From IMG/VR virus record IMGVR_UViG_3300042890_005556: DNA of 64,000 nt. One strand, given 5' to 3'. The translations under genes were made by a program, and so were the position numbers. The stretch's first letter is position 1. Every line of letters starts with the position of its first letter. The notes beneath the pieces are model-generated. The model searched no databases, had not been told where the DNA came from, and saw nothing but the letters and a program-made list of their open reading frames with translations. Shown piece by piece: positions 7,956-45,800 of this stretch. This stretch comes from a virus.

Positions 7956-7961
7956 TATTTA
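7956..7961 (-). promoter_or_regulatory. Candidate late promoter core TAAATA
   Basis: About 32 nt upstream of the 7924 start. Confidence 0.4.
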
Positions 7962-7966
7962 ATTCA

Positions 7967-9817
7967 TCAATCTTTTATAGCGACAGTATGGTTTTCGGCC
8001 ATCGCTACTTGTAACCAGCTAGATCCACCCATAATCGTCTGCACTGGAGAAGATTTTGATTCTGTCGTGTTATCCCCTAACTGACCATACCCATTATCTC
8101 CCCAAGTCCACAGTGTGCCATCAGACTTAATACCAGCAGAACTAGTACCAGAAGTCGAAGAATACTTCCAATTCCCAGCGGTCATCACCTGGACCGGATT
8201 AGACCTATTTTCAGTTGTGTTATCACCTAGACCTCCACCATTGTTATTGCCCCAAAGCCATAACGTACCGTCGGTTTTTATAGCAGACATGGATATATAA
8301 TAAATGGTATCTGCGCCACCACACGCTACAGACTTCCAATTTGTACCACCAAGCGATGTTTGAACTGGCGATGAGCGATTTCTGAAAGAGCCACCGCCAA
8401 AAGCCCTGTTATTGCCCAACTGCCCAGAAAAGTTACCACCAACCGTCCATAATGTTCCATCAGCCTTAATTGCCGCCATATTATCAGTACAAGCAGCTAC
8501 TTGAACCCAGTCGCTACCTCCACTGATCGTCTGAACAGGAGAACTTTTGTCTACAGTAGAAGCATCACCAAGACTTCCAGAGCGATTATTGCCCCATGCC
8601 CATAACGTACCATCAGTCTTGATAGCAGCAGTACTCCACCTGCCGCAAGCTACCTGTGACCAATTACTGCCACCAGTAATGGTCTGGACGGGAGAGCTCC
8701 TATACTCTGTTGTGCCATCGCCGATCTCACCATAATAATTCAAGCCCCAAGTCCACAAAGTGCCATCGGTCTTTATAGCCGCAGCATGAAAAGCATCTAC
8801 TGAAACTTGCTTCCAGCTAGAACCCAAATCGTCAAAAATTCGTACTGGTTCTAAAACTACGCCTTCAAAAAATCCCTGTGCCCACATAGTTCCATCAGCT
8901 TTAACAGCCAGGTCGCGAGCACCATAAATATCAAAATTACTAATGAAACCAGTAGAAGCCTGCTTCCAAGTATCGCCACCAAGTGAAATCTGGACCGGAG
9001 ATGAATTAGGATTGATCAATTCATAAGAATTCCGACCCCAATACCACAAAGAACCAGACTGCACCACCACAGTAATACTAAAAGCCTTCTCAGTAGTTAA
9101 CCCACCCTGATCAGTAGAACGCACACGAACCGTGTAACTGCTCTTAATAGCTAAACTAAAGACCTCATCAGCAAGCAGATTAGCACCATCAATAGTAAAT
9201 GAAGCATTGTCAGTATCGCCAGCACCAGCCACCAGAGTGTACGTGAACGTATCACCAGCATCTGTGTCGACAGTAGTAAAAATCCCGATCACATCCCCGA
9301 TTTCATTATTCTCAGCAATCGAAGCTGAGGAAATTGTAATGTCCGTTGGCGCTAAATTTGCAACAGCAACCGTACTAGAAGTGCTAACAGATTGCAAAAC
9401 GTTAACAATAATATCACTGGCATCACCATCAGCTAAAATCGCATGAAAATTCACTTTCCCAAAAACATCATTAAAATTTCCATTCCTATACTGCACACAA
9501 TAAGCGCCACTAGATTCATCATCATAAGTAACAATACCGTTAATATCCATCCACCAATCAGAAATAGTCTTATCCTGAACAGGAGAAGTAACAACAAAAT
9601 TCAAATATTTGCCACCAGGAGAACCCAAAGTCAACAAATCCTGAAGAGCATCAACATCACCCGGTTCGTCTGTGTAAAGCTGACTGAAATTAATATTACT
9701 TTCTAATTCAAACGGGTTAGAAATGATGCCATTTGAATAAGTTGACTCGAACGGCCCGCTTGTCCCATCAGTGTATGCTGCAACGCCAGATATTTTAAAC
9801 GTGAAAGACGTTATCAT
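7967..9817 (-). CDS. Cadherin-like x1 + RCC1-repeat protein, tandem paralog of 5723..7924
   Basis: Shares the N-terminus ITSFTFKISGVAAYTDGTSGPFE. Start set at ATG 9817 (AAGGA upstream, matches the paralog) rather than 9856. Confidence 0.85.
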   Translation of the reverse strand: MITSFTFKISGVAAYTDGTSGPFESTYSNGIISNPFELESNINFSQLYTDEPGDVDALQDLLTLGSPGGKYLNFVVTSPVQDKTISDWWMDINGIVTYDDESSGAYCVQYRNGNFNDVFGKVNFHAILADGDASDIIVNVLQSVSTSSTVAVANLAPTDITISSASIAENNEIGDVIGIFTTVDTDAGDTFTYTLVAGAGDTDNASFTIDGANLLADEVFSLAIKSSYTVRVRSTDQGGLTTEKAFSITVVVQSGSLWYWGRNSYELINPNSSPVQISLGGDTWKQASTGFISNFDIYGARDLAVKADGTMWAQGFFEGVVLEPVRIFDDLGSSWKQVSVDAFHAAAIKTDGTLWTWGLNYYGEIGDGTTEYRSSPVQTITGGSNWSQVACGRWSTAAIKTDGTLWAWGNNRSGSLGDASTVDKSSPVQTISGGSDWVQVAACTDNMAAIKADGTLWTVGGNFSGQLGNNRAFGGGSFRNRSSPVQTSLGGTNWKSVACGGADTIYYISMSAIKTDGTLWLWGNNNGGGLGDNTTENRSNPVQVMTAGNWKYSSTSGTSSAGIKSDGTLWTWGDNGYGQLGDNTTESKSSPVQTIMGGSSWLQVAMAENHTVAIKD

Positions 9818-9870
9818 AGTATTAATCCTTCGAGTTGATTCATTGTATTCTTCCATTGTATTTTATTTTC

Positions 9871-26776: not shown

Positions 26777-28066
26777 TCAGGGAGTGAGACCGTGTGATAG
26801 GCAGACTAGTTTTATTTGGTCTCTAAAGTCATTTACTGATCTTATGGTGATTCCAAAGAATTCGGCCATGTGGTTGATTTTTGGGTCACCAGCTCCAAAT
26901 CTGTCGCTGAATGATTCATATACTTCACCGTTTTGGATCAGTATATCGTAAACTTGTTGACAAAGTCCCTTTGGCAGGGATTTCCGTATGGTAGACAAAG
27001 CATCTTCGGCTTCTATTACTGAAACGTGATCTTCCAAGATCATTTTCTGGCCCTCAACAAAGCGGTGGCCTATCTGGTCTAGAGTAGAACCACCTTCGTC
27101 CTCGGTGACACTTAGTTGATTGTCCAGAACAGTTACGTGTTCTGGGCGAATCACTACTGCTTCAAGCTCATCCTGACAAGAAGACTCATCCGTGATTTGG
27201 ATAGATATCGTATTGTTATCGATACCTAATAATACGCCATGTCTTATTGCTTTTTCTTTGATTTTAGAAAATTCAATAGAGAATTCTGGTGGCGTTTGCA
27301 TTCCTAAAATATGGAACGCATAGTGACTATCTTCCTTGGCACAATTGTAATCAATGTTCATCTGGGAGCATGTACTTGCTAGCTCTTCGGAGATGATGTA
27401 GTCTGGGCGACCGCTGATCAATTGTGGTACCTTTTTATGTTCTTGGCGTTTGTTTTCTTTTAAGTGTTGTCTGAAGTAATTCCAGGCGAATTCACCAAAG
27501 AATTTCTTGAGCTGCTTTGGGTCGTTGACGATTGCTTCTGGGTTCTCATATTTTCTCTCGCCAGGGATTGGCTGTATTGGCGATATGATTTTTGATCCTG
27601 AGTACCCTTCTGCTAGAAGCAAGCGGTAGTCGTCGTAGTCAATGAATGTTTTTTCGGTGGTGAGGTTGCCTTTTTCGGCTATTTTGACTTTATTACAGCT
27701 AGGGCAACATATGAGTTGCTGGTCTATGCTCTTGGCTTTACCTCTTTTTGTCAGATATTGTGTCTGCTGGCAACTTTCGCATTTAAATGTGTAGTCGCGG
27801 TGGTAAAAGAGGTTTATCACTCCGCGCCATATTGCTATCTGATATTCTAGCTCGGCTGCTGTAGAGTCGTCGGCGTAGTCTCCGCCAATTGTCACCCTGA
27901 ATTGTTTCATTATCTCTGCTCTATGTCTTACCATTTCTTTATGATTTGACACATATGTCACCATGTCATGCACTTTTTGTCGTTCGTCTTCTGAGATTTG
28001 CGACATGGTGATGTTTACCAATGAGCCTCTGAGATATAGCTTTGGCATTTGACGAACAATCGGCAT
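26777..28066 (-). CDS. Sigma70-family-like factor with zinc-ribbon insertion
   Basis: Region-2-like AELEYQIAIWRGV and FFGEFAWNYFRQHLK flank a CESC...CPSC insert; region-4-like ALSTIRKSLP..QQVYDIL...INHMAEFFGITIRSVNDFRDQIK (HTH); GGAGGT RBS. Confidence 0.6.
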   Translation of the reverse strand: MPIVRQMPKLYLRGSLVNITMSQISEDERQKVHDMVTYVSNHKEMVRHRAEIMKQFRVTIGGDYADDSTAAELEYQIAIWRGVINLFYHRDYTFKCESCQQTQYLTKRGKAKSIDQQLICCPSCNKVKIAEKGNLTTEKTFIDYDDYRLLLAEGYSGSKIISPIQPIPGERKYENPEAIVNDPKQLKKFFGEFAWNYFRQHLKENKRQEHKKVPQLISGRPDYIISEELASTCSQMNIDYNCAKEDSHYAFHILGMQTPPEFSIEFSKIKEKAIRHGVLLGIDNNTISIQITDESSCQDELEAVVIRPEHVTVLDNQLSVTEDEGGSTLDQIGHRFVEGQKMILEDHVSVIEAEDALSTIRKSLPKGLCQQVYDILIQNGEVYESFSDRFGAGDPKINHMAEFFGITIRSVNDFRDQIKLVCLSHGLTP

Positions 28067-28141
28067 TTGTTACCTCCATGGTTGTGTGATTACCACTGCC
28101 GTATTTTAGAACAGACAATCCTTTTTGGCAGGAGATCCGCC

Positions 28142-28903
28142 ATGGCTCAGTATTGCGACACGAAGAAACTCGAAAAGGTCTGGTTTAACTGGCTTCTATC
28201 CAAATCAGCACCCACGCTGGAGCCATACAGGAAAGCGGGTGTGTTGTGGACTAAAGCCATAGGTCTCGTCGATGTGAAGGGTGAGGTGATTGTCAAAGGT
28301 GGTAAGACCTTTAAAAGTCCTACACATCCTATCAGATCGCACTGTATCTTGTCAAGATATCCGTTCTTCTTTACCACTTTTAATGGTAAGCCACAAGAAC
28401 TTGCGTCCCAAATACATTATAACGAAGATGGTGATTATACGACAACCCCCATTGCACTTTCAGAGATAGAAATAGTAAAAACCAAGCCGGAAATAAAAGA
28501 CATAGAACAAATACTACTAAAAGATGGCTACATCCTAGATGCAGAAACAGGAAAAAGCTGGGAGTCCATGTTAATAGACATCAATAAAATGTGCCTCGGA
28601 ATAGCATCTAAATTCCATCAAAAAACAGCAGAAGAATTGAATGATTTAGCTAACGAAGCATTATTGCAAGTAGCTAACAAATTATCTACGGATAGGCTGG
28701 TATATACTCCCGGAAGGGCACCAGTATTCAATTTATTAACCACCACTATACATCGATGCATGTTTTCAATTATGAATAAAAGGAAAAATCAAAGAGAAGG
28801 GCTTAACAGATTACTGCAGGACGCACAATCTGGGTCATTACCTCAAACTAACAGAAGCCTGAGACTCCAAACATTCACGACGAGAAAACATGAAAATCGT
28901 TAG
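28142..28903 (+). CDS. T4 gp55-like late sigma factor with internal insertion
   Basis: YCDTKKLEKVWFNW, INKMCLGIASKF, NDLANEALLQVANKL, YTPGRAPVFNLLTTTIHRCMFSIMNKRK parallel the gp55 region-2-only pattern; ATG 28142 follows AGGAG. Confidence 0.65.
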   Translation: MAQYCDTKKLEKVWFNWLLSKSAPTLEPYRKAGVLWTKAIGLVDVKGEVIVKGGKTFKSPTHPIRSHCILSRYPFFFTTFNGKPQELASQIHYNEDGDYTTTPIALSEIEIVKTKPEIKDIEQILLKDGYILDAETGKSWESMLIDINKMCLGIASKFHQKTAEELNDLANEALLQVANKLSTDRLVYTPGRAPVFNLLTTTIHRCMFSIMNKRKNQREGLNRLLQDAQSGSLPQTNRSLRLQTFTTRKHENR

Positions 28904-29831
28904 TAACAAACACATTGTGCCAGCAGTAACAAAAAAACCAATAGACAATATTAAAATAGTTGTTAGTCCCCATAATAAAACTATAAGCACACTAAATGCT
29001 TATAATCAATCAGCCCATATGAAAGTAATCCCAGCACAAATAGCACCGCAGATCAAAAACAAAGCAGTCATTGATAAAAGCCTAGTAAAAAGAACTCAAA
29101 ACCCAAATAAACCAAAACCACCAGCATCGGTAACTTACGCTTCCGGCGAAGCACCAATCGAAAGCATACCAAAAATATACGGTATAAAAGACATAGGTAA
29201 AGGTAAGACATTAGTAGTCATAGCAAACGGCCCAAGTATAAACGAAGTTGAATTGGAGAGGCTAAAAGACAAGCCAGGCATCGACACTCTATCAATAAAC
29301 AGACCGGACCCACGGGTCTGGCCAACCACATATTGGTCATTTTACGACCAATCACAGCTTGTGCGACACGAAGACCTGTATAATTATTATGAAGGCATAA
29401 CCTTTCTAAGCACAGCCATCAAGAGAGACAAGGCCAGAAGCATAAAGTTTAAAAATTTTGGCAAAAAGCAATTTAGCAGAGACTTAACAAAGGGATTATG
29501 TATAGGACGCACAAGCTGCTATGCTGCTATGCAACTTGCTTTATGGATGGATTACGATAAGATATTCTTTTTTGGGGTTGATATGCACCCAGATGGTATT
29601 GACGGCAAGCTCCATTTCTACGGGACAAATCCCGACGTAGACCCTGATATTAGGAAAAAACGATTTAACTCAGAAGCAGAATACTTCGAATTTGCCGCAG
29701 ATAACATGGAATACCAAGAGAGAAAGAGATTTCACTTTTGTTCGTCTTACCTGACATGGCCCTTTAAATCGCGTTTCAATTACTTAGATCACAAGACTGC
29801 TATAGACGTGATTTTAGGGTCAATGCTATGA
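28890..29831 (+). CDS. Maf/DUF115-type glycosyltransferase-like protein
   Basis: VVIANGPSI, TLSINR, PTTYW.FYD, TSCYAAMQLALWMDYDKIFFFGVDM, HFY. Confidence 0.7.
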   Translation: MKIVSNKHIVPAVTKKPIDNIKIVVSPHNKTISTLNAYNQSAHMKVIPAQIAPQIKNKAVIDKSLVKRTQNPNKPKPPASVTYASGEAPIESIPKIYGIKDIGKGKTLVVIANGPSINEVELERLKDKPGIDTLSINRPDPRVWPTTYWSFYDQSQLVRHEDLYNYYEGITFLSTAIKRDKARSIKFKNFGKKQFSRDLTKGLCIGRTSCYAAMQLALWMDYDKIFFFGVDMHPDGIDGKLHFYGTNPDVDPDIRKKRFNSEAEYFEFAADNMEYQERKRFHFCSSYLTWPFKSRFNYLDHKTAIDVILGSML

Positions 29832-29840
29832 TTCAACCTA

Positions 29841-30227
29841 ATGTATTATAAAACCATGAGATACTACATAGCATCTAGTTTAGACAATGTTGCCAATGTT
29901 CGTAACGCCATTATGAGGCTGACCGAAGCTGGGTTTAGTGTCACACATGATTGGACAAGACATGGCAGAATCACAGACCCATCACAGTATCAAGCCATTG
30001 GCGAAGCAGAGTACCAAGGCGTGATTGATGCAGATTTCATCGTGTTTTTTATGCCGACTAGGTATGGAAGCCATGTTGAATTCGGTATAGCACTAGCCTC
30101 TAACAAACCGATTTATATGGTCACAAACGGCGTGGAATTTGAAGAAAAAACATTCTATCATCTACCATCCGTACATAGATACAGCGATTTAAATGAACTA
30201 TTGCGCGAATGGGGAATAGACAAATGA
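29841..30227 (+). CDS. Nucleoside 2-deoxyribosyltransferase / dNMP N-glycosidase-like protein
   Basis: YYIASS, THDWT, EYQGVIDADFIV, GSHVEFGIALASNKPIY (family catalytic Glu in G..xE.G.A). Confidence 0.8.
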   Translation: MYYKTMRYYIASSLDNVANVRNAIMRLTEAGFSVTHDWTRHGRITDPSQYQAIGEAEYQGVIDADFIVFFMPTRYGSHVEFGIALASNKPIYMVTNGVEFEEKTFYHLPSVHRYSDLNELLREWGIDK

Positions 30228-30928
30228 GTGGAAGCGTATCAACTAAGCTCGAATTAGACGTAATGCAAGTCAATGAATTGCTTGAAGCAAGCGAGCTAAT
30301 GTCCCAACATACGCTACCAGCCATGGTCATACATTCTGGCTTGGCCCCAGACGCTTACGCAGCACGGATGAGAGTCAGAGGCAGGTACAAGATAATCATC
30401 CCTATTGATTGGCCAAAAGGCGAAAATTTTTCTAACTTGAAATTCAGGGGACTAAGCAAGCAAGCACTGGAAGCTGATGGGTTCGAGATAATGGTCACGC
30501 CAGGTAAGACCCTTCTAGATACAAAAAATGAGATCAACGTTCTGACTGAATTCATCAGAAACTTCCTGGGGGAATATGTGGAGGTTCGGTTTGTAATAGG
30601 CAATACTATTAAAACCGACGAGGAAATTGAAGTAATATGCAATGCCTTGTTAGGTATGAGAAACCCCACATTGTTGCGTAGCGATACTATCTTGAAAGTA
30701 CAGCAAAATGTCATCAGCGCAGAGTCGCATCTAGCCTTTGTTAATAAGCTACGCGGCTTTGGTCTTCCCACACCTATAAAGCTATCGGGGAACATGAACA
30801 ACCTGAAATCTATCGCTTCAGCGCCAGCAGTTTTCAGGTATGCTGTCAATGTAACACAAGCCAAGAATATTATTCGAGAGATCTTGCAGCAGCCCAGTGA
30901 ATTGAAGGAAATCCTGTCCGACGTTTGA
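30224..30928 (+). CDS. DeoC (deoxyribose-phosphate aldolase)-fold protein, catalytically divergent
   Basis: PIDWPKG, ADGFEIMV, VRFVIG..IKTDEEI..IC, LLRSDT (Schiff-base Lys position reads Arg by my alignment), PIKLSGN; ATGA overlap with the upstream gene. Confidence 0.55.
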   Translation: MSGSVSTKLELDVMQVNELLEASELMSQHTLPAMVIHSGLAPDAYAARMRVRGRYKIIIPIDWPKGENFSNLKFRGLSKQALEADGFEIMVTPGKTLLDTKNEINVLTEFIRNFLGEYVEVRFVIGNTIKTDEEIEVICNALLGMRNPTLLRSDTILKVQQNVISAESHLAFVNKLRGFGLPTPIKLSGNMNNLKSIASAPAVFRYAVNVTQAKNIIREILQQPSELKEILSDV

Positions 30929-30938
30929 GAATGACAAT

Positions 30939-31328
30939 ATGATACACGATCATCTAATGGAAGCAATCAGGCAAGATGCCGACCTATTGACTAAATCCGA
31001 TGCGTGGCTCGAAGAAGAGAAGAATTACTTCACAGAGCAGATGCGCAAATCCATAGAAGAGCTAAAACCCATCCTCTTAGCTATAGCTATAAAACAAAAA
31101 TTGCAGCAGCAGAACATGGTGCCTAGGCAGAAGTTCATAAGAGGCAGCACAGGCCAGATAGAGAATGTTGTGATTGACTTCTGTAAGCTACCAGAAGCAC
31201 TGAGAGATATGCTCAATAACGGCAGAGATACCTTAGATCAGTTGATAGCAGCTGGCAATATTGCCACATGGCAGATAGACGGGTATGACGTTAATACCTG
31301 CCTCCAAACGGCACCGAAAGGGATATAA
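30939..31328 (+). CDS. Hypothetical protein translationally coupled to purZ
   Basis: 129 aa; TAATG overlap with the purZ start. Confidence 0.7.
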   Translation: MIHDHLMEAIRQDADLLTKSDAWLEEEKNYFTEQMRKSIEELKPILLAIAIKQKLQQQNMVPRQKFIRGSTGQIENVVIDFCKLPEALRDMLNNGRDTLDQLIAAGNIATWQIDGYDVNTCLQTAPKGI

Positions 31329-32428
31329 TGCAAAACGGCAAGCTCAATATAGTCACAGACGGACAGCACGGTAGCACAGGCAAGGGTCTAATCAACGCAT
31401 ATCTAGCCGATAAACACCGACCAGAAATACTCAGCACGACCAATATGGCCAACGCTGGCCACACCGCAGTCAACGAAAACGGCGAACCGTTCATAGCAAA
31501 AGCATTACCGTCATCAGCGGTCCTAAACAAATGGCGAGAGGGCTATAAACCGACAGTATTCGTAGGAGCTTCATCTGCTTTTGATCTGCAACAGCTACTA
31601 AAAGAATGGGAAGAATGCGACAAGCCATTCACACTAATCCATCAAAGAGCGGGTGTCATTACACAAGAGCAAAAAGAAAGAGAATCCGGAGCATCAGGCA
31701 CAAAGCACGTTGCTAGCACCATGCAAGGATGTGGAGCATTTCTAGCAGATAAAGTCATGCGAAGAACAGATTTAAAACTCGCTAGAGATTATGAAGAGCT
31801 TCAACAATTCATGGCCATCAAAGAAGCACATACATGGCTAAAGGCACAGCTCGAAAGCTACGGTACAATTCTCCATGAAGGAAGCCAAGGATTCAGCTTG
31901 GATATAAGCCACGGTAGTCACTATCCAGAGTGTACAAGCCGCAGCACCACTGCTATTCAAAACCTTGCTGACCTTGGTCTTAACCACAAGCAAGTTGGTG
32001 ATGTGTACGTGGTTTTCCGGCCATACCCGATCAGAGTCGGCAATGTCTATGAAAATGGGGTAGAAGTAGGCAACAGTGGTGGTTGTTATGGCGACAACCA
32101 AGAGACTACTTGGGAAGCAATAGCCGATGCTGCAGGTGCACCGCCAGAGATTAAAGCCAAGGAGCTTACAACTGTCACAAAGCGACTTCGAAGGGTCTTC
32201 ACGTTTAGCATGCAGCAAATCACCGAAGCTGCTGCAGCTAACGGTGCATCATATCTTGCGCTGAATTTTGCTAACTATATTGACTGGACTTGCTATGGCA
32301 CCAACGACAAGGCAAAATTGTCAAGCAAGATTTGGGATTTCATTCATTCAGTACAAGAGCAAACAGGCGTCAAGGTGGGGCTTGTTGGTACGGGTCCTCA
32401 GATAAACCACGTAATTGACCTAAGATGA
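31328..32428 (+). CDS. purZ: PurZ, N6-succino-2-amino-2'-deoxyadenylate synthase (Z-base pathway; PurA paralog)
   Basis: DGQHGSTGKG (Ser where PurA has Asp in GDEGKG), NMANAGHT, EGSQGFSL, YPECTSR, RPYPIRVG, ELTTVTKRLRRVFTFS, and LNFANY in place of PurA TKLD; short 366-aa length as in phage PurZ. Confidence 0.85.
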   Translation: MQNGKLNIVTDGQHGSTGKGLINAYLADKHRPEILSTTNMANAGHTAVNENGEPFIAKALPSSAVLNKWREGYKPTVFVGASSAFDLQQLLKEWEECDKPFTLIHQRAGVITQEQKERESGASGTKHVASTMQGCGAFLADKVMRRTDLKLARDYEELQQFMAIKEAHTWLKAQLESYGTILHEGSQGFSLDISHGSHYPECTSRSTTAIQNLADLGLNHKQVGDVYVVFRPYPIRVGNVYENGVEVGNSGGCYGDNQETTWEAIADAAGAPPEIKAKELTTVTKRLRRVFTFSMQQITEAAAANGASYLALNFANYIDWTCYGTNDKAKLSSKIWDFIHSVQEQTGVKVGLVGTGPQINHVIDLR

Positions 32429-33204
32429 TCAACCTATTCAAAGTCGCAATTTACACAGACGAAGCGGGGTCTACCCTCGCTTCGTCTAAGAGTATTATAT
32501 CAGAATTAAATATTCCAAATGTCATTTTTAGAAACGTAGACAATAGGAATATTCTAAAATATGACGAAACTCGAATAAAGGCTGTCCTCAAAGAGTTCGA
32601 GGATTTTACCGTAGCTGGTCTGTCGACAGATATCAGAATAGATGATATGTTGTCAGATGATCAGATTTTCGATTTACGGAAGAAGATTTACCTTATTAAA
32701 CCAGTATTTGTCAGATTCGGGTGGGCTGGAGAGAAATACTCTACGGAATTTATTGCTAGAATAATAGATATGAGTATAGAGAGCAATTTTATACCGGTTA
32801 TTGAGTATGAGCATACGCATTTTAATTCTCCAAAAATCATAAAGGCACAGGACTGGGTCAACCTTTTGTCATTATCGAAGCGATTGAGAGTGAATTTTGA
32901 TCCTGTTCAGTATCTTATGCGGGTAAGAACTGATCCTATAGAGACGGTTTATGTTCCGCTTAGGAATCAAGTGAGCGTGATCGATGTAAGAGATTATAAG
33001 ATTGGCGTTGGGGCTAAGACGATTGGTTACGGGTCTATTGATTGGGCTGCGTTGTTAAAGAGACTATATTCCGATAAATATAACGGTTGGTTGGCTATTA
33101 AGCCGTCTCTGGGTATCATGCATGGTGATACTCTTGGTAGAGAGATGGTTTTTTCCCATGCTTTCAGCAATTTCAAAGAAACATTGGAGGAAGCGTGTCA
33201 ATAA
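32425..33204 (+). CDS. Xylose-isomerase-like (AP endonuclease 2 family) TIM barrel, divergent
   Basis: AIYTDE, VIEYE, VNFDPVQY, IDVRD, IGYGSIDWAALLKRLYSDKYNGWLAIKP; several metal ligands appear replaced; ATGA overlap with purZ. Confidence 0.7.
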   Translation: MINLFKVAIYTDEAGSTLASSKSIISELNIPNVIFRNVDNRNILKYDETRIKAVLKEFEDFTVAGLSTDIRIDDMLSDDQIFDLRKKIYLIKPVFVRFGWAGEKYSTEFIARIIDMSIESNFIPVIEYEHTHFNSPKIIKAQDWVNLLSLSKRLRVNFDPVQYLMRVRTDPIETVYVPLRNQVSVIDVRDYKIGVGAKTIGYGSIDWAALLKRLYSDKYNGWLAIKPSLGIMHGDTLGREMVFSHAFSNFKETLEEACQ

Positions 33205-33410
33205 ATCTTAATGAGACGACAGCTGCTATTAGAAAAGCTGGAGCCGTCAATGTTCGCGTTGTCCCTATGAAGGGGCAAACAATCGATGGTGAGCACCAAA
33301 TTGAGATTCAGAACGTGCCAGGGACTTGGCAGACTATTTTGACTGGTATTAAAAAACCTATGGCTGAGAGCATCGTGCGTGACGCCACAAACAGGGTATT
33401 GTTAGGATAA
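33195..33410 (+). CDS. Hypothetical protein
   Basis: GTG start after GGAGG; 71 aa. Confidence 0.7.
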   Translation: MSINLNETTAAIRKAGAVNVRVVPMKGQTIDGEHQIEIQNVPGTWQTILTGIKKPMAESIVRDATNRVLLG

Positions 33411-33874: not shown

Positions 33875-36800
33875 ATGGCAACAGATCCGTTTGCGAATAT
33901 AGGTTTTAGGGAAAACTTCTCCCAAGCTTACTACACAGAAATAATTATAGCTAGGAATAAAAAAAGCATAAGATTTGCTTCTTCCACTCCTACAGTAACA
34001 AACAGCTACCGCCAACTGATGGGTGGTAATTTATACAGAGTAGCGGAGTTACTAAGTATAACAGGACCAAAACAGCCCGTAGCCATAGAAAATAAACTAC
34101 AATATAAAAAAGACCAGCCATACTCACTCTATGATCAAGGCCAAATAAGCGACGAATTCAGAATACAAAACGTCGACCCTACCCTCTCGTTAGAGAACAG
34201 AGAAAGCTATTGGGCAAGAGTGAGTAGCCCATTAGGGAGAGAGTGGGCTGCCTACTACGCTGGAACAGATGCTAAAATAGGCTACCTCGCAAACTTCATA
34301 GACAGAAACTTAGATGACTTCACAGGCACTAATTTTGCAGGATTTGTATCTGGAACACTTAATAATGATAACGATAAGCCCAACCTATATGACACTGTTA
34401 AGATAGGAAACATATTCGGCTCCACAGTTCAAGGTAGCCAAACTGCATCTGTGTCTGTTGAGCCAGGCATGTACAAGAGCTTCATCTCGTGCAAAGTCAC
34501 ACAAGACACGAGATATTTTGACCCTACAGGCGCAGAAATAATCCAAACTGCTGAATCAGGTGATTTATTCGCCGACGAGTTCGTGTTAAACTTTTATATA
34601 TTCCCAGGTTATCACACATTTTATTATGGCTCTTGGAAGATAACAATCGAGCCGACTAATACGACAGGAACGCATAGGGTATTCATCCAGCATGCCAGAT
34701 ACTATACCTCTGCTGAATACAATATGCAGCCAATTGTGAGGAAATTTAGTGCAGACTTTGATTGGGATGGGACTTTAAGCGAGTTTAATCTTATAACTAT
34801 TAAGTACCTGTTCACTCCAAGACCTCAGGGGAGTGCGTCGACTGGCACAATTAACATTGGTAATTCTACTAGTAAAGTTAGTCTATTTGTAAATGCTGTT
34901 CCTGTCTTCGCAAGTGGTAGTGATTCGATATGGCCCCCATCTTATCCAAAAGTCTACCGTGGTTCAAGCGGTGCGGGATTGCCTAGTTATACACAGAAAC
35001 CATATATTGACCTAAAGATGGCCCCAGATAACACGCCTGTCTTCATAGTATGGGATAATGCAGTACCTTTCGGGATCACAAAAAGCGAGTTTGCATTTAT
35101 TCTTATAACTGATAAGTTAGTGGATCTTAAAGGTCTTTATACTCACCTCATTAGATTCGAAAGGATAATGCCTAATCTCACAATTGAGACGACCCCTAAC
35201 CCAGTTGTTCCTCCAACACCCCCAGTAGGCGGTATTACTTCGAAATTTTACAACAGGGCTACTTATAGTCTTGCCCCAGCGGTCTTGATGGAATTAAACA
35301 AGATACTCTTAGATTTCATGTTGTCCCAGCCAAATATTAGGATCTCTAGCGGGCCACTTGAATCAGATCCAATTCTTAATAGAATGCTAGCCGCCGCAAG
35401 CACCACCAAAAAATATTCATCAGCGATAGAATCTGACAAGAACGTTTTAGATCTCTTAAGAGAGCCAGTCTTGGTAGTAGATGATACGAATTCACTTCTA
35501 CCATATATCTTGCTAGAATATGGACTGCCCAATGACAACGTCGGGCAACTACGAGTTAAAATAACAGAAATAAAATCACCAAATGTAATCGATGAAGTAT
35601 CATCAGAAATTGAGCTACAGGGCTACGCAGAGTATATTATTAAAACCATTACCACAGACAGCTGGACAGCTGGCACGGTGACGTTGTCTACGAATTTCAG
35701 ATTTTATGTCGATGATAGTGGAATGTACGAGCCAAAATTAGATCCGTATATCGTCAACAATCCTAATCAGCTGACTCTTAATGAGTTTGGACAAGTATAT
35801 GTTGAGAGTATGCGCGTTACTTGGGCTTTTCCAAGGGACGTGAACAGTCCTTTTGTTATTCCAGATAGCTTTTTTACTAGGTATAACAGGGTGGTGGATG
35901 TAGTAACCCAGGAAGTTGAAATAGCGAAGCTCTTTGATACGGAGAGAGACTTATTACCAAATGGGTTGCCGGTCGATCTAAATATGTCTAATAAGCCGGG
36001 CACGACCCCTCCAATACCACCTAACCCTGGAACAACTCCAACACTATATTATAATCGAGCTGAATGGAGTGTACAGCCTGCTAAGGAAGCGGAAATAGAA
36101 GAAGTCCTAAAACAATTCATGATTAGTAATCAAGTGATAACTAGCGCGGATTCGCGTTTTAGAAATATATTGAATACCGCTTTGTTGACTGATTATAGAG
36201 TGATCAGAACATTCGAAATGTCATTAGGGTTTGGAGAACAGATTCTTGATGTAGTTGATACACCTCTTGCTACTAGTAGTAATGAAGTTGAAATATTTTA
36301 TGCACCAACTGATTCAACTTTTGTTGATCATTCAAAAACTAGCGGGGTGCAATTACGCGCCAGAATACCAATAAATGACCCTAATAGAAATAATTCTCAA
36401 ATTGACCTATCTAGCACAGCTAAATTTACCTTCGACATACCAGCAAATTTCGACAGTCCATCTGGTGATCTGTCCGAATATGGTGCTGGGACCATTGAAA
36501 TATTCGTAGATTTTGTTTTGAGGCAGGCAGATGTTGCGAGACCGGATATCGGCAGTGCTAACCCTTATATCGTTGGGAATAACAACGAATTTATACTTAG
36601 CTCATCTTACAGATTGGGAGCGTTACGCGCTACTATTACTGCTGATATCGGTTTAGGTACTGATTTCATTGACGAGTTTGATATTAATTTAGAACCAATA
36701 AAACTCGATCAGTTCGGGGCTGGAACTTTAGTGGACATAACGCCTTTCATTACTGGTGGTGTTCCAGTTTCCATAAATATGTCAAATGCTCCAGGCACAG

Positions 36801-39800
36801 TCGGAATTGGTGTGCCAGGTGGTACACCATTACCGCCATCTGGTGGGTCATTATCACCATCCAAGAATTATACCGCAACATTCACCCTGGCAGACCAGCC
36901 ATTTAAAATATTCGAGATAGACAATTTAAAAGGGCTGTTAAATTTTTACAGTTTCCAAGACACTCTAAACTACACATTATATGATCTTCTTCTAACCCCA
37001 TATTCTCAGAAAGTACCCATTTCGAGATACGCGTCTGACGTTTTCAAGCTAGCCCTAATCGAACAGGGTAAGATACCTGGACACCCATCAGATCAGACTG
37101 CAGGATTTTTAAAAGCGTATACTGCCTATTTTAATGACCAGGATTGTGTGCTACCGGAAGGCAGTCCGCTAGACCCCTCTTGCCAGGCATTGACCATTGA
37201 ATATATCATAGCACCTAAAGAGACGAATAAGGTATTAACATTAGGCACAAATCTCCTGAAAATGGGCATGGTTATTAATCTAGGGTGTAATGGTGGTGCC
37301 AATTGCGTTGTTGTTAGCGGCAAACAGATTCCTAGAGTGAATGGTGTGCCTACGGCCCAGTTAAGTTATGATTTTACCATGGAGATGATAGTAACAGAAG
37401 ACACATCAGGTGTGACGCCACCGACGAGTCCAAGTATAATCGTGACATATAATCTTTCAGGGCCCATAGCGCTCTGGGGTTTTTTAATAGGACAATACTC
37501 TCTTATTAATGTTTCTAGATACACTGGTGGTGCATACAATAAAGTCATAGCGTATGATGAAGCGACTATGAAATCAGGCACAAATTTTCTAGTAAAAGCT
37601 TTCGGCACCGATTCACCACTATATGAAGCCGGTAACATAGCGCCAATTAAATTGTCTGCTAGAGGGAAGAGGCTTTGGGGTTCCGATCCGGACGATTTTA
37701 CTAATGACTACACACAAATCGACTTTTTTGTGACAGCTTACATAGACACAAGATTTACAAAAACACTAACTGGCTCGTTAATTAGTGACCTAGATGCTCC
37801 CAATACAACACGAGCAGCAATAGTTTATGTGATAGAGCCTGTAACCGTACCATTTCCAAGATTCGACGGCACGATAGTTCCCTCTAAAAAATTACCAACA
37901 GTTACCTATACTGATTACACTAATGTATTAATGACCAAGCGTTTTCCCTCTGACGGCGGAGACGGCGGAGACGGCGGAGACGGCGGAGATACGACGGTCA
38001 AGAAGTACAACGGTAAATGGAATTTGGGTCCAGATTTCATTAGAGCTATAGAAAACACATACATCGAATTTCTGCAAGTACCCACATTTAATTGGCGACT
38101 TGACAATGTGGCGTCAAAGGGCTTAGGAAGCTATGATAAGCTTTTGTGGGAATTAGTAAGTGGAGGTGTCAATCCAATCGTCAATAACTGGCAGACTGCC
38201 GGATACCCAACTGGAGTTGGTCTGCAAAGACCAATAGACTCTAGATCCGTCCAATATTGGATGGAAGACGTATTAAAATACAACGGCGTCGGAACCGGAC
38301 CGACCGGAGCACCAGTCACACTAGCTTACTCATCCAGCTTCCAAGGATCTAATTTAAAATTAACAGTTTATATGAATATAGCAGTTAGAGACATAAGATT
38401 AGAAGCTGAAAAGTCAACTAGTGTAACATTGGACATCTCTAACATAATAGGCGAGTTGTCTGAAGGTGGAATAAATAAAACCTATCTGTTTGCGAATAGA
38501 AGTACTTCATTTACCATATTAGTAGACGTATACGAAGCGATGCAAACATTCAGTGCTCCGCAAGAAATGATGCTCGCACAGACAGTTCCCGACAGTTACA
38601 TCTGGCAGCCACCCAAATACATTATAGTAAACAGTGACAGCCTCAAATACAATGATGGCCTAAACGACGTATACTACTTCAGAGACGGCTACCAAACCGC
38701 TCTAAGACAGACCTACTCATTCGTTGGCACAAGAACATCACAAAACGACGTAATAGCAACATATAGGCACGGCGATGCCAGCTCATACGACCCAGAAACT
38801 ACAAACTACGACGTAGTGGTTGGCGGCTTCGACTTGGTATACCATAAAGGCACACCCAACACTCTAACTTTACTACCGATCGAAATAATAGAGTCTAAAA
38901 CCAAAAAGAAATTTGTGTGCTTTGGCAGCATCAGAGAAGTAGGAAATATATTAAACGCCTCAATAAAATCAAACGTTGTGATGACATTCATAACAGATAA
39001 CGGATCGACATCCGACACAGACGGAGCATACTGGGTATACGACAATACCTGGAAAGAGTGGTCACATACAATTCCGATCAATACCGGCGATGAGCTAAAC
39101 TTATACTGCTACAGCTGTCTCACTAATCAGGTTGGTACGCTAGAAACCAACATCAATATAATCACCAAATTCAACGTTAAACCAACTCCCAATAACCCAC
39201 CGCCATCAGTAGATCCCACCGAAATATTCCCAGCAGAATTTTCTTACGACCAATTAATCCAAAAAGTACCGGCACTACCAGTTGTATACCCCCCAGGCTT
39301 CCCAAATCCATCAGTATATCGGTTTGAATACCCTAAAACGATGGCAGTAAAGGCCAAAAGCTCAACAGATACATATGAGTTCTTTCTAGAATCTATTGAC
39401 AGCACACAACGCATTGCTACTTATAAGCTGTATGAATTCGTGAACAACGAACTGACGGTAGGTGGTTTTACTGTAGAATACACACCACACGTATCATTCA
39501 AGCTAAGTAAAGTAGACGTGTACTCAGCAGATTTAGATAGAGATTTTGAATGCTTTGGAGTAATACACATAATCTATGACAATGACGGTGCATTATTGTC
39601 GGCTGATACGTGGGAAATAATACCCACATTTGAAGACCCTAATGATTTCGCTAACTGGTATTTGACTGTCGTACAAGACCCGTTGACTGGTGGTAACCAT
39701 TTTAACACTTATTGCAACGATGGCACAAATTTTAAATGCTCAGCAAATAACTTGAAATTCGTGATGCGTATAGACGCGAATTTTAAGCATTATGCTCCAG

Positions 39801-42800
39801 AACCTCCAGCAATCATTGTCGCTCCACCCGTATCAGGTCCGCCAATACCATTGCCCATATACAGCACCGGTTATAACGTTGCTTCAGACAGGCAGATTGC
39901 ATTCATTGGTGAGCCTGATAGTAACTGGAAAATCACCAGTTTTATTACGGGTCCAGAAACTGCTCCTACACATTATTGGAAACTAAATAATGGCTTAACT
40001 GATAGTGTGGGTGACTTACCATTTGTAGCACATCCAGCTATGAGAGTTGAACAGGGACAAAGCCGACCGCGATTCGCACGCATCGCAGATTTCACCTACG
40101 GGGTGGGTGCTGTTTGGTCGAATATACAGACGCAAACGACTCCTGAGAATGCTATTTATCCTAATAATCCTGGAGTAGTCAGTGGCAGTACTACTATAGG
40201 AAAAGGCATAGAACACGGTTTATATGCTTATGTGGCTTCACAGACCTCAAACCGAATTTTGGATTCAAATGCTTGGACGATAACTGGATGGCTAAAAATG
40301 CCTATTAAACCATATGTCGCCAATATAGACAATGCTGGCGGCATATTAGAAGAAATGGTATTTAGTATTTCCCCATTCACACCTTTGCCACTTCAGCCCC
40401 CATCAGTAACCAGTTCATATGTCTTTGGTCCTGAACTCATTGTCGGTAGTGCCCCTAGGATATCAGTTTATGTGATCTACGCTTTTAGAGACTCAACACC
40501 TGCTGAGGTGTATGGTGAAAGATTCTTTAAGAAAGCCGGCCATATTTATGTTTATTTTAAATCAACCCGCACCAGCGAACCGACTTACGCAGGAAAAGAG
40601 ACTGGGCTGAATGCAGTATTAGTAGATGAGGCTGGTGACATCATCTATAGGGATTTATTAACAGGAGACATAGCGTCTGAAGAGGGTACTACATCAAGAG
40701 CCTGTAATTTCCTTGAAATACCTGGACCAGATCTAATAAGAGCGAATGTCTGGTCATTTATATCAATAAAAAAACAAGAAGCATTTGATGACAGGCTGAT
40801 AATAAGTATAAATGGCCGAGATTACACAGCGATATTTCAGTCTGCCATCGTCACAGATGAGCTGTTAAAGAAAGTTAATTTCATCCAGGCAATGGCCCCG
40901 CTAGACGATTTAAGAACATACGACTCAGAGCTCTCAGACTTAGAATTAAAACTGATATCGCGAGTCGGTAGCGCAGAAGGCGGGGTAGTACCACGAGAAT
41001 ACAGCCCCGGTGGAGTGGTATCAGGGGTCATATCAAGCCAAGTTTTTGCTTACGACCACTTTAACCCTTCAGAAGAGATCCAGCCATACTGGTGGCCAGC
41101 CGGATATACCTCTGGTAGCACCATCGTGCCAGATCGCACAAACCTCTACCAACAATACAATGCAAGATGGGTGTCGCCACCGCCTAAGCTGGGCATTGAC
41201 GCATCACCAGTAGCAAAATCCTTCCATTACGCCACCGAATTTGATCTTACAGGTATTACTCTCAATACAGTCAAGATATCGTTTCTATGCTCTGGTGACG
41301 ATAGAATAGTTGATATAATTGTTAACGGCACGAGCACAGGCTATAACAACATCTCAGAGATCGGCGGGCTGCCAGCTACTAATACGACAGCATATGACAA
41401 CTTAAGGTACAGGAACCTATGGGACGTGAAGCTACCGACCGGTAGTGGCCATCTCTTCGTTCAAACAATTAATACGATCGATATAGTGGTAGAAAACCAA
41501 GCTATCACAGATCTTTCAGTGGCTACTAACCCAACTGGGTTATACGTGTACGTTTACGAGAAGACCGGTGTTCCATTACCCATACTGGAAGACCCAAGAG
41601 CAATCATTTTAGACATAGTCGATACTGGCCACAATAAGATATTGAATCAACCAATACCTATAGGTTCGTCAGATAGCAATTGGGTGATAGAAAAAGTAGA
41701 AAGATCAGAAACCGCTCCTTCTCACTATTGGAAGTTTAATAATAGCCTAAATGATCTTGCTCCAGCTGTTGGCTCAACACCATTACCATTTGCGCAATAC
41801 CTGGTACAGTCTACTTTTAAAGCTGGTGTGGTAGTCGGTAATGCTGGAAATCCGCAAAACACCGGGGTAGTTCAGAACGCAGTATTTCCTTTTATTCCTG
41901 GTTCACCAACTTCTGAATATGGCAAGCACATCCTTGTTATATCTGAAGGAGGTACAAATAGTAAGCTCATTAATTCATCAGTAGGCTGGACGATTACCGG
42001 CTGGATTAAAATTCCATTATACGATGGATCAATACCGTCACTCGCGGAATTAACAACAATATCTGCTATTTCTCTTGACGTCTTTGCTGCTAACACGCCT
42101 ACCATGAAGTTTAAGTTTTGTTACTTTGGTGCTGGCAATAGAAAAACAGGAGCTCTCTATTTAGACTTTACTTATGGCGAATTGGATAGTAACAGAGCTA
42201 TGACAATACCTGACCAATCCACCAACTTCATCGAGATAATACCGAATCAAGGGGCGTTCTCTCAGAACGAATGGGTTTTCTTTTCAATACGCAGAACTCC
42301 ACGGACTACCGCTCCTTCTGGAGCTATATCTGATGGCACAATAATATTAACAATCAACGGTATTGATTACACTATTAAAGAACCATATATCCCAGGAGCC
42401 AGCTCGACTTTCGACACTATGAGCTGGATTGATTTTAGTTGCCCGGCAGATGATCTAAGAATATACGGAAATAAGGTACTGTCTAACTCTGAACTTAAAT
42501 TCATTTCCAAATACGATTTCACATCAATTATACCCGGTGAAAATGACCACGCCACTGCGGAAGGTGTACCGAGAGAATACTTGAACACATACATTACCGC
42601 GCCTTCCCCCGTCTTCGCCTACGATTACGTAAACCAATACAGCCCAGCACAACCATACTGGTGGCCACAAGCAGTTCCCAACCAAGCCTCACTCTACGGA
42701 GAATACAAAGCACGATGGGTATCGCCACCATCAACCACAGGCATTAACATAAGCAGATTAGAAAACACAGGATTCCACTACTATAAAACAACATTCAACC

Positions 42801-45800
42801 TAGCGAATATCGACCTAGAAACAGTAAAAATATCATTCCTCTGCTCTGGTGACGACCAAATATCCGACATAATAGTCAACGGAAAAAGCACAGGCTACAA
42901 CAATCTATCGCAAGTAGGAGGGCTGCCAGGGAGCGACTCAGCATACCAAAATTCAAGATTCCGAAACCTATGGGATGTAAAACTGCCAGTAGGAAAAACA
43001 CACCTTTACGTTCAAACAATCAACACGCTCACCATAGTAGTACAGAATAAAAACCTAGAAGACACAATAGCAATATCAAATCCAACAGGATTATACGTGC
43101 ACTTCTACGAGAAAAAAGGAATCCCAGTCCCTGCACAGCCAATAATCGACCCAATATTATTCACAATCAGCCAACAACTATATAAAGACCCGACAGTAAT
43201 ACCAATAGACCCAGAACCAATAGTCTTGCCCAAGCCAGCACCACGCCCAGTAGACTTAACAAGATCCAGTAAATGTCTGGAACTAGCAGCCTACAGCTAC
43301 TTCGCGCTTGGACCAGTCAACACCACCAAATTAACCACATTTAACAGAGCGTCAAACATATGGGCATTCGCAACGACAAATAAGCCCAACGCCTTTGGAC
43401 AAAATAGAAACAGATATGGATTCACTACGTCAGATGCAGTATGGGTAAGGCCAACCACAGAGCCAAATACCTGCAAATACCAGCTAAATTGCAGAGACAC
43501 ACAATCAGCAACGATGGCTAAAAACAACGTAATATACCGCACAATCACAGCGCCAGCTGATACCTGGATCACAATAGGCTGGAGACAAGAAACCCCACTG
43601 CCCGGCTTCAGACTAGCCGGTGATACGGTGGGAATAAAGGTAGCCACAGTCATAAAATCAGCGGTAGGTCCTGACCACATAAAAGTGACCACAGACACGC
43701 AGACCGTATTCGGAATGCCAACAAAGCGTGTAATACCACCATGCTACACTGCGGTCGCTGAATACAATAAGACAATTGTCAGTATAGAAATCATAATCTA
43801 TTCTACAGGCATAGTTTACGAAAACTTCATAGACGACATAGTCATCGAATACGGACCAGGGTACTGCGACGAAATAAATTGCATTGATACATTCACCGGC
43901 ACTGACGCTATCCTGAAATATACCGGAATGTCTCGTGAATTGGTATCAAAAGACAGCACTGAAGCTAAACTTATCCAGTACGGCCCGACAGAACTTAACT
44001 TTGGATCACGCTACTACATTAACGCTGGTGTCACTGCATCCCAGACTATAGAGCTTGGCGGATTCCTAAATAAAAACGCCAAAGTGAGCATATCAATATC
44101 GGGGTACAGCGCTACTAAAACAAACGGCGTAACCGTAAGATTAGAGACATTTGATGAAAACATGCAACCACTCGAATTATTCACTGAAAACCTAGGAGTA
44201 ACGAATCCTGGCAGCTTCTACACGACAGATACATTCGACAATGCAAGCCAAGTAAACCTGTTAACCACCAGCAAATTCGTGCTGGGACAAGCTGCCAGAA
44301 TTATAAAAGTGCTGGTCACGTCACAGCTCAATAAGTTCTACCTTGGCTTCATTGATGTCTGTACAGACCAAGACGTGACATTTATAAAAACACCGCCAAC
44401 ACTTGATTGCAAAGGCAATGTTAATAAGCTTCGAGTGCTGCTGAATGTAAATGGTGTTCCACGTGAAGAAGTGAACATCTTCCAAGCTTTCTGCCGATAC
44501 ACGGTACTGACCAACACTACCTACAGAACACAGCAAATCGTTGAAACCACTTCGACTGCTGATGGAAGAACCGGCACAGCGCTTCCAACTAAATGCGATG
44601 ATGCAGCACTCTGCAATTATTGGAAGCAACAGGGTGTGAATGACACGGTGGATCAGTTGATTCTGACAAGGACCATCACAGATAACGACGCTGCTGTCGA
44701 CATATCAAGAATAGCATCTGGCTCTTATAACCTTCTGACAGGTATTGATAACTGGATATGGGCATCACCACTTAATAGAGGTTTTGGTCCAGACCAGTAT
44801 ATTTTGCAATTCCCAGATACACAGAATAAAGTCGCAGAAGACAATTATGTAGAATCACTTGAAATATTCCTATCTGCCAATAGAGCCCAAGTGAGCAACG
44901 CAACATGCTTGCCAGCCATAGGTTTAGCATACAAATTCGCAGATTTCATCACAGTTAGCTCTACTTCGGCAATTCTACCAATTAGCATACCAAAATTGAA
45001 TGTAGAGAATCCAACCACTCTACGATTCGACAGAGTATCACTGAATAAGATTGGAAGCATAACGACAGCTAACTATGTTCTTGCGAGAAGAACATGTAGT
45101 GATAAATTCGTCTTAACCGGAGGATTCACAGTAGAGCATCATCCAGAAAATGGCGAGTATTTCGTCATCAAAGCATACGACTGGTCTAAGTCACCAAACA
45201 CTCTGCTAGGAGTAGTTGACAGCTGCCGTAACATCCTTGATTACAGCACGCTCTTCACCTTAGGATCACTAACGACAGCCAATAATCTTGCTGCGAATGA
45301 CACCACCAGGACCGCATTCTTCTTTAAACCAACTAATAACGCTTATTCCAGCACTGGCCCGAATAACACACAATTCTTTGAGTTGTTGGTCCCACAGTCC
45401 TCACAATTCGACATATTCTCAGCCAACAACAATACTAACAGTGTGCCAGTTACATTAGTAATTGATAAAGCTAATGTCCAGAGCTATGAGATATCTGCTA
45501 CATTTACTTGGGACAATACTTCTGGTGAGATAATAACAGATCTTACGGGAGAAAGCGATTGCAAAGACCCGGCAGACGCGATATCAGTAACAATCGAATA
45601 CATCAACGCTGTTGGTGCAAAGAAGAGGTTCACCAGAGAAATACCTTTAACAGAATTGAATACCATAGAAGAGACAAATACAGAAGACTGGAACGCGCTA
45701 CGGGCATTCGGTAATGGGCTTAAAGGTGATTACGCGACATGGGCATCCACAAAGTTTGAGCTCGATAAGCCGTATGGAGGCGGGTTGGATCAATGTCTTC

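Follow-up and report, generated by a model that had tools for sequence, protein, structure and literature searches.

Jumbo phages without an RNA polymerase are assumed to run their transcription programme by their own sigma factors, almost none of which has been tested. Does a pair of divergent genes, here called A and B, in the DNA of an uncultured giant lake phage (IMG/VR record IMGVR_UViG_3300042890_005556) encode such factors, and what do the large insertions in both proteins mean? The analysed stretch, called the window, is 64,000 nt (64 kb) long, and all coordinates are positions in it. We put at about two chances in three the view that A and B are specificity subunits for the host RNA polymerase of a T4-like jumbo phage without a polymerase of its own, and that they work as a cascade. 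Judging from the structure models, A would be a complete sigma-70-type factor and B a minimal factor of the gp55 type, with sigma domain 2 only.

A divergent gene pair with defined starts

The locus comprises the following elements (pLDDT, predicted local distance difference test; VIA, the structure comparison tool used throughout).

26777-28066, minus strand: gene A, 429 amino acids, putative two-domain sigma-like factor; 55 homologs; AlphaFold pLDDT 80.8; colinear VIA alignment to the ECF factor SigL
28142-28903, plus strand: gene B, 253 amino acids, putative gp55-like factor with sigma domain 2 only (VIA); 271 homologs; AlphaFold pLDDT 87.6
28067-28141, no strand assigned: divergent control region of 75 bp, with GTATT at 28101-28105 (B sense) and TGCCAAA on the minus strand at 28130-28124

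Both genes were taken from the open reading frame (ORF) list, in which B lies within a longer plus-strand ORF (28049..28903). The start of B was set at 28142 because every B homolog begins M(A/G/S)QYCD (alignment A1), and that of A at 28066 because the N-terminal peptide MPIVRQMP.LYLRGS is conserved in 38 homologs (alignment A2). With the starts fixed by homologs, the divergence across 75 bp described in an earlier, sequence-only reading of this DNA holds. Shine-Dalgarno sites were found for both genes (GGAGG on the minus strand at 28073-28077 for A, AGGAG at 28130-28134 for B). The homologs are metagenomic and lie on contigs of up to 438 kb, and because conservation extends over the entire protein in both families, A and B are not chance ORFs.

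Protein B as a candidate minimal sigma factor

Two segments of B are distinguished behind its first helix.

28208-28546, plus strand: residues about 23-135, beta-rich domain separating helix 1 from the sigma-2 core (strands 35-105, helix 118-128), delimited by ortholog comparison
28547-28828, plus strand: residues 136-229, predicted core helices of sigma domain 2, including the invariant loop and helix YTPGRAPVFNLLTTT (invariant columns in alignments A1 and A4)

In the AlphaFold model, helix 7-31 is followed by the beta-rich domain (35-105), helix 118-128 and three long helices (136-229), and past residue 229 there is only a short tail, so that B is without domain 4. VIA comparison with 48,161 solved chains, one representative per PDB cluster, returned 7d7d_F as the top match (Z 11.2, 117 residues aligned), and a check of the chain identity confirmed this chain as T4 gp55. 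SigB came next (Z 10.3, root-mean-square deviation (rmsd) 2.4, 91 residues), and about 40 sigma domain-2 chains were found behind gp55 at Z 5-10, including SigB, SigA, sigma-32, RpoS and many ECF factors. Additionally, Foldseek returned sigmaE region 2 as a local match at a probability of 0.97 and a template modelling (TM) score of 0.66.

Sequence comparisons yielded weaker signals. The core of B is colinear with IMKIAEGLS...NPHAYITQ.CFNAF of gp55 according to hhalign. The late sigma factor of phage 121Q showed a weak similarity (BLASTP E 3e-4, hhalign E 0.021) that covers the core and a shared tail pattern, G..P...R. One B ortholog lacking the insert touched TIGR02937 at E 0.057, below the cut-off, and Sigma70_r2 occurs on 19% of the members of the Atlas neighbour cluster of B (score 0.96). 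Alignment of the B family (A1) by hhalign to T4 gp55 alone or to the gp55 family was not significant, and a sequence-profile search of the PDB with the B family gave nothing meaningful.

Protein A as a candidate two-domain sigma factor

The predicted parts of A are listed in order from the N-terminus.

27794-27997, minus strand: residues 24-91, first three helices of the putative sigma domain 2 (26-40, 43-59, 68-87; model and VIA)
27539-27793, minus strand: residues 92-176, inserted module consisting of a C4 zinc ribbon (93-128; 27683-27790) and a small alpha/beta extension, delimited by ortholog comparison
27449-27538, minus strand: residues 177-206, last helix of the putative sigma domain 2 (QLKKFFGEFAWNYFRQHLKENKR), part of the domain-2 structural match
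27149-27430, minus strand: residues 213-306, ferredoxin-like alpha/beta middle domain (VIA), occupying the place of sigma domain 3
26783-27028, minus strand: residues 347-428, putative sigma domain 4 (helix-turn-helix; VIA)

The AlphaFold model shows helices at 26-87, the zinc ribbon and alpha/beta extension at about 90-171 and a long helix at 183-205, followed in the C-terminal half by an alpha/beta domain (214-306), a disordered linker (309-346) and a four-helix domain (347-424). Both putative sigma domains are colinear with the ECF factor SigL (6dv9_F, 160 of 174 residues), and about 12 further whole sigma chains of the ECF and group-3 types, for example, 8hkc_E and 1rp3_A, align to both domains in order. 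Residues 24-91 and 177-206 together match the N-terminal domain of SigE (8b3z_A; 78 of 80 residues, rmsd 3.0, Z 6.4), and pro-sigmaK also matches domain 2 (8vjl_B, Z 5.9). Domain 4 was aligned to sigmaE region 4 (2h27_D; 66 of 69 residues, rmsd 2.4, Z 8.2), to Fusobacterium nucleatum sigma-H (3mzy_A, Z 8.2) and to more than 15 further sigma-4 chains, including those of SigF, SigK, SigW and SigA (Z 7-8.2, 61-69 residues aligned, rmsd 2.0-2.6). The middle domain matched only de novo or ferredoxin-like folds (9dd2_A, Z 9.9; 5dxl_A, Z 6.8) and is kept in all orthologs, including those without the insert. By VIA, therefore, a sigma domain-2 fold is present in both A and B, the point on which the sequence-only reading had staked its case by naming the fold's absence from both as its refutation.

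That reading had also suggested co-folding with the clamp helices of beta-prime, and here the outcome was less firm. Residues 1-212 of A with residues 240-340 of Escherichia coli beta-prime gave a score of 0.60, the best control one of 0.01, and the tool's verdict on this is 'weak support'. Of 80 solved complexes, 58 passed the mark, as did two of 110 mismatched pairs; only seven of the 80, together with both passing mismatches, did so with a score of 0.60 or less. The runs agreed in at least 55% of contacts, with a partner pLDDT of at least 74. The pass may stem from a likeness to solved sigma-polymerase complexes.

The first 20 residues of A (28007-28066, minus strand) form a peptide, M..(V/L)RQ.P.L.LRGS.AN.T, that is among the most conserved parts of the protein, with L12, R13, G14 and T20 invariant. 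It is modelled at low confidence and is without a counterpart in known sigma factors. It may be a docking or regulatory peptide.

Insertions present in some lineages and absent from others

The zinc ribbon of A is placed between a helix ending in ...LFYHRDY and the helix FFGEFAWNYFRQHLKENKR, and its cysteines, C96-x2-C99 and C121-x2-C124, are invariant in the family (A2). The whole module of about 85 residues is missing from the orthologs of four related loci (L029, L033, L037 and L038; alignment A5), in which ...LYHKP runs directly into ..V..D...R.K(Y/F)F.....NY.RQIL.ENK, and it is shrunk to a mini-ribbon of about 30 residues in three others (L027, L028 and L031). Because these orthologs lack it at the matching position, the module is a true insertion. 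Seven residues of the helix that follows (K188, F190, N196, Y197, Q200, E204 and N205) are invariant in insert-bearing and insert-less orthologs.

Likewise, the domain of about 115 residues in B is a true insertion, because the B orthologs at the syntenic position in L027-L039, of 125-171 amino acids, are without it; in these, helix 1 (YVDSK.LE..W..W) runs directly into W..L...YKIC.GVA. An intermediate form with a shorter insert (213-215 amino acids) is found in L020-L026. Judged from the sequences, three states occur among the lineages: both inserts present, both absent, or just a mini-ribbon in A. Two descriptions given in the sequence-only reading are thus confirmed by the VIA folds, the invariant cysteines and the insert-less orthologs, namely region-2 and region-4-like segments in A with a CxxC..CxxC insert splitting region 2, and a gp55 pattern in B with extra residues after the first helix, which number about 115 where about 120 had been given.

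The model places the module of A in the loop that leads into the last domain-2 helix, the topological place of the -10 'specificity loop' in sigma factors. The corresponding loop in the four-helix domain 2 of SigH acts as the specificity loop and binds the flipped -10 base (10.1101/534826). We infer that the zinc-ribbon module may contact DNA. The A family profile matched bL33 zinc ribbons over 36 residues (E 7.5e-4 to 0.08); in Pfam, Ribosomal_L33 was touched by six of 38 A members (best E 0.0077, below the cut-off) and Zn_ribbon_8 by 25 of 38, all weakly.

In sigma-70, a non-conserved region lies between helix 1 and the core. From this and from the VIA ranges against 1sig_A and 3ugo_A, the insert of B would occupy the position of that region. 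Structure searches with the whole models assigned no fold to the extension of the A insert, and Foldseek and VIA searches with the whole B model assigned none to the B insert. The inserts are probably lineage-specific add-ons that provide extra polymerase or DNA contacts or a regulatory handle.

Three further observations concern these regions. The ribbon of A (C..C...Y.TK....K..DR....CP.C) is nearer to ribosomal protein bL33 than to other ribbon families. In an insert-less lineage (L034-L036), the A ortholog has 530 amino acids and contains another, cysteine-free expansion with a weak KOW motif match (E 0.0014); therefore, A was enlarged independently in different lineages. In B, residues C5, H67 and C68 are invariant among insert-bearing proteins, and C151 is invariant in insert-bearing and insert-less ones; the insert-less orthologs have another residue in place of C5 and, with the insert, lack H67 and C68. 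From this conservation pattern, the four residues may bind a metal and so fasten the insert to the sigma-2 helices.

Conservation of the pair, the purZ operon and genome type

Thirty-eight related loci were found in IMG/VR, and in all 37 with upstream sequence, A on the minus and B on the plus strand stand head to head, 27-134 bp apart. The pairing persists down to 22% identity in A, and the gene order from MptE-like through purZ to the TIM barrel gene is found behind B in most, not all, related loci. Searches of 50,697 phage records with tblastn and megablast gave no match for A, B or the surrounding region. Behind B, the window contains the following run.

28890-33204, plus strand: run translationally coupled to B, in order MptE-like, nucleoside deoxyribosyltransferase-like, two unknowns, purZ (31328-32428) and a TIM barrel protein (32425-33204), from Pfam and PHROG matches

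The stop of B overlaps the start of the next gene at 28890, and the later junctions measure -19 to +10 nt through purZ and on to 33204, bearing out the earlier claim that B heads a coupled run leading to purZ. The purZ product matches Pfam Adenylsucc_synt and PHROG 1211. A terminator-like hairpin lies 3' of the run at 33316-33331.

Five relatives are 98-100% complete, have genomes of 354-408 kb and carry T4-type capsid (Gp23/gp23) and portal (gp20) genes. The RNA polymerase beta subunit was not found in these five genomes by a search that was positive in 14 of 14 control genomes. The complete relatives fit the 'group 2' jumbo phages of Iyer et al. (2021). Three of the five (G001, G002 and G004; L044-L047) carry one or two extra genes each for canonical sigma-70-type factors of 235-336 amino acids (Pfam Sigma70_r2, E 1e-21 to 4e-8), located far from the A/B pair. 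No extra sigma was detectable with Pfam in the other two, and no homolog of the relatives' canonical sigma genes was found within the 64-kb window. An identification of A with the 'RpoD-like' sigma of Iyer et al. was considered and dropped, because three of the five relatives carry canonical Sigma70_r2 genes elsewhere; A is an additional, far more diverged factor beside them.

Candidate promoter motifs

Different candidate motifs precede A (TGCCA(C/A)A), B and genes of DNA metabolism (GTATT), and portal genes (TAAATATA). In the window, GTATT stands 41 nt before the ATG of B. Among 32 distinct A-B intergenic regions, 24 have GTATT in the sense of B at 22-80 nt before the ATG, compared with 3.1 expected and seven in the antisense control; the binomial P of 2e-18 overstates independence because the loci are related. 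Moreover, of all 6-mers, GTATTT shows the strongest enrichment in 407 upstream regions (62 versus 11.5), with a peak 20-50 nt before start codons. Besides B, GTATT in the window precedes SbcD-like, SbcC-like and thymidylate synthase genes. It forms a single block without an upstream partner element.

TAAATA is also enriched in the 407 upstream regions (38 versus 13.8), and TAAATATA is found 25-40 nt before the portal ATG in three of the five complete relatives. An example of TAAATATA in the window stands before 10743. In the complete 354-kb relative G002 (a relative of L006), TGCCACA occurs 26 times with a T-rich element about 19 nt upstream, once before the A ortholog. This bipartite motif is probably a separate, perhaps early, promoter class. 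In the window, TGCCAAA stands 64 nt before the ATG of A and overlaps the ribosome-binding site of B. A scan with the sigma-70 consensus found 20 sites (19.4 expected) and is uninformative.

Several details of the motifs were recorded in addition. The G002 sites, T-rich...(C/T)TGCCACA, are located 30-60 nt before start codons, mostly of small genes clustered at 224-273 kb. Sites of the class T-rich...TGCCA(C/A)A in the window are found at 28124-28130 and upstream of 51721 and 59481. Candidate motif variants are CCGTATTG, GTGTATTA and WWGTATTTWAG. A block, GAAACGTTGCACA, containing the palindrome AACGTT, lies about 35-40 nt from the A start in L002, L003, L004, L008, L017 and L018 (also L005 and L006). 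It is absent from the window, and AACGTT and CAACGT are about threefold enriched in upstream regions.

A proposed cascade and the points against it

The three motif classes fit a cascade. A would be made first, from a TGCCA(C/A)A-type promoter; it would contact the beta-prime clamp helices and a -10-like element through domain 2, and the beta flap and an upstream element through domain 4. In a second step, the genes of DNA metabolism and the B-purZ operon would be driven from GTATT promoters, and in a third, B would drive the late TAAATATA promoters. This order, taken from the motifs and from analogy with T4 and SPO1, is the one we favour. The sequence-only reading had proposed a two-step transcription switch, which remains plausible in that A, B and the late genes each have a motif of their own upstream; as to the number of steps, more than two are possible, because one or two additional canonical sigma genes are present in some relatives.

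A number of results weigh against this proposal. At the level of sequence, Pfam Sigma70_r2 and Sigma70_r4 and TIGR02937 matched neither A nor any of 38 family members or insert-less orthologs of A at E<=1. Neither B nor its insert-less orthologs were recognised as sigma factors above threshold by Pfam or NCBIfam, and PHROGs, including 234 and 12791, gave no match for B at E<=0.1 or for 10 orthologs at E<=1. The insert-less B orthologs aligned with the gp55 family over 95 colinear columns (hhalign E 0.006) at a probability of only 6%. At the level of structure, Foldseek found nothing at E<=0.001 against the PDB for A, for which sigma entries appeared as high-probability local matches, or against the PDB and BFVD for B; the domain-2 match of A reached just Z 6.4, and Z 6-11 for helical domains is, as the VIA tool warns, a range in which a common arrangement is possible.

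As for the wiring, the promoter classes were assigned to the factors by position and analogy alone. GTATT would suit B, with its domain 2 only, better than A, because it is a single block without an upstream element, and the bipartite TGCCACA class would suit A. The extra canonical sigma factors of three relatives could read any of the motif classes. Furthermore, gp33, gp45 (Pfam DNA_PPF) and DnaN domain 3 were not detected in the five complete relatives, of which the gp33 and DNA_PPF searches are uninformative because they gave no match anywhere, including the controls in the case of DNA_PPF. A T4-style clamp-coupled late mechanism is unsupported, because none of these partners was detected.

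Alternative explanations

The alternative that survives best keeps the same two sigma factors and wires them differently. B, with its YTPGRAPVFNLLTTT loop, would read GTATT and act as a self-reinforcing factor for DNA metabolism, not as a late factor; A would read the bipartite T-rich...TGCCACA sites, including its own promoter, and TAAATATA would be read by another factor. We regard this as possible but rather unlikely. It accommodates the lack of a partner element for GTATT and the presence of one about 19 nt upstream of TGCCACA, the invariance of both the B loop and GTATT across all lineages, the TGCCA(C/A)A in the upstream region of A itself, and the extra sigma genes in three of the five relatives. 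However, it breaks with the analogy to gp55, where an earlier holoenzyme transcribes the gene of the late factor, and a gene whose sole promoter needs its own product must be started in some other way. Moreover, TAAATATA before the portal genes resembles the T4 gp55 promoter TATAAATA, and two complete relatives are without a Pfam-detectable extra sigma that could read it.

It is improbable that A is instead a DNA-binding helix-turn-helix regulator of the LuxR/GerE type that combines a zinc ribbon with an unrelated helical N-domain and activates or represses the divergent B operon. The gene directly adjoins the operon that it could regulate, and the only sequence hints for its C-terminus are Pfam GerE, weakly touched by five of 38 family members (best E 0.004), and Atlas neighbours of the LuxR/GerE type, whose score is low (0.77); the modest Z of the N-domain match also leaves room for this explanation. 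Yet that N-domain aligns to 78 of the 80 residues of a sigma domain 2, both domains stand in sigma order in about 13 whole chains, and the last domain-2 helix has an aromatic and basic pattern like that of sigma regions 2.3/2.4, conserved throughout the family. The co-fold with the beta-prime clamp helices, for all its 'weak support', and the nature of these phages, which are without their own polymerase and in two relatives without any other complete sigma, likewise speak for a sigma factor.

The link to purZ raises the question of genomes in which adenine is replaced by 2-aminoadenine (Z), and these phages probably make Z-DNA. We give little credence to the idea that A and B form a dedicated transcription system for such a genome, in which the -10-reading loops would read GTZTT and TZZZTZ, phage promoters would be read by phage factors alone, placing B and purZ in one GTATT operon would couple Z synthesis to the late switch, and the zinc ribbon of A would contact the melted strand. 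Least likely is the suggestion of the sequence-only reading that the inserts are adaptations to Z-substituted promoters: the A/B pair is linked genetically to purZ in nearly all loci and the insert of A lies at the loop that reads the flipped -10 base in ECF factors (10.1101/534826), but orthologs without inserts precede purZ operons of the same gene order (purZ 48-49% identical in L033 and L037, 41% in L028 and L031), the Z content of the phage DNA is itself unproven, and the inserts are not tied to purZ, because purZ stays whatever the insert state of the lineage.

Comparison with known transcription factors

The proposal of two cascading sigma factors can be set beside several known systems. 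T4 gp55 (PDB 7D7C/7D7D chain F; PHROG 234) resembles B in having sigma domain 2 only, with domain 4 missing, and in three colinear motifs (YV...LE..W in helix 1; I..IC/A.G..; P..F/Y..T....F). The T4-type gp23 and gp20 of the relatives and the likeness of TAAATATA before late genes to T4 TATAAATA extend this resemblance. B differs from gp55 in giving no profile match and in its inserted domain. The tail of B is basic and conserved (G.LP...RSLR), whereas that of T4 gp55 is acidic and binds the clamp. T4 gp55 works with the gp33 co-activator and, via its C-terminal tail, with the gp45 sliding clamp; in the relatives, neither gp33 nor gp45 was detected by the searches, uninformative as these were.

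The late sigma factors of RaK2 (292 amino acids) and 121Q (279 amino acids), both in PHROG 12791, have a gp55-like core with a large insert after helix 1, as in B. B has no match to PHROG 12791, and the inserts are without detectable sequence similarity. Like the phages carrying B, RaK2 and 121Q are polymerase-less group 2 jumbo phages (PMC7824862).

With bacterial two-domain sigma factors (ECF or group 4, such as SigE, SigH and SigL; group 3, such as SigB and FliA), A shares the order of domains 2 and 4 and the helix count, and its domain 2 is like that of SigH in having four helices with a loop before the last. Unlike these factors, A carries the zinc-ribbon module of about 85 residues in this loop, a ferredoxin-like domain of about 95 residues plus a disordered linker between the two domains, and the conserved N-terminal peptide RQ.P.L.LRGS, and it has no Pfam or TIGRFAM match.

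In Bacillus phage SPO1, gp28 acts first, followed by gp33/gp34, and the later sigma is transcribed by the earlier holoenzyme. PMC13401047 mentions the SPO1 sigma cascade. The use of successive phage sigma factors is the likeness here; homology is not claimed, and the order in the present phages comes from motifs only.

According to Iyer et al. 2021 (PMC7824862), group 2 jumbo phages have no polymerase, and they encode gp33 besides two sigma factors, one minimal and one complete; a review (PMC13282480) also covers minimal and complete sigma factors in polymerase-less jumbo phages. The logic of one complete and one minimal sigma recruiting the host polymerase is the same as that proposed for A and B. 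In contrast to that description, canonical Sigma70_r2-positive genes are present elsewhere in three of the five relatives here, and PMC7824862 does not describe the fixed head-to-head pairing or the link to a purZ operon.

What is new in this locus, as far as models and alignments can indicate, would be a sigma factor with a zinc-ribbon module at the position of its specificity loop, and the natural occurrence of both factors without their inserts. Also new are the three candidate promoter classes and the constant head-to-head arrangement ahead of the purZ operon. The two families, of 271 and 55 homologs, were unannotated and are missed by every profile library searched (Pfam, PHROGs and NCBIfam). 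They offer natural versions with and without insertions at the -10 specificity loop and at the position of the sigma-70 non-conserved region. Together with the three candidate promoter classes, this opens two questions to direct test, namely how large modules at these sites are tolerated by a sigma factor and how -10 elements with Z in place of adenine are recognised and melted.

Distribution and other genes of the window

DNA of the window is present in lake and freshwater metagenomes of 17 studies, and a search of sequencing runs found it in none of RNA. Other unusual genes in the window (15069-16508, 5723-9856, 33875-47674 and 47659-48294) encode a Volactin-type actin homolog, two RCC1-repeat proteins, one of which has cadherin domains, a 4599-residue ORF and a NucS-like endonuclease.

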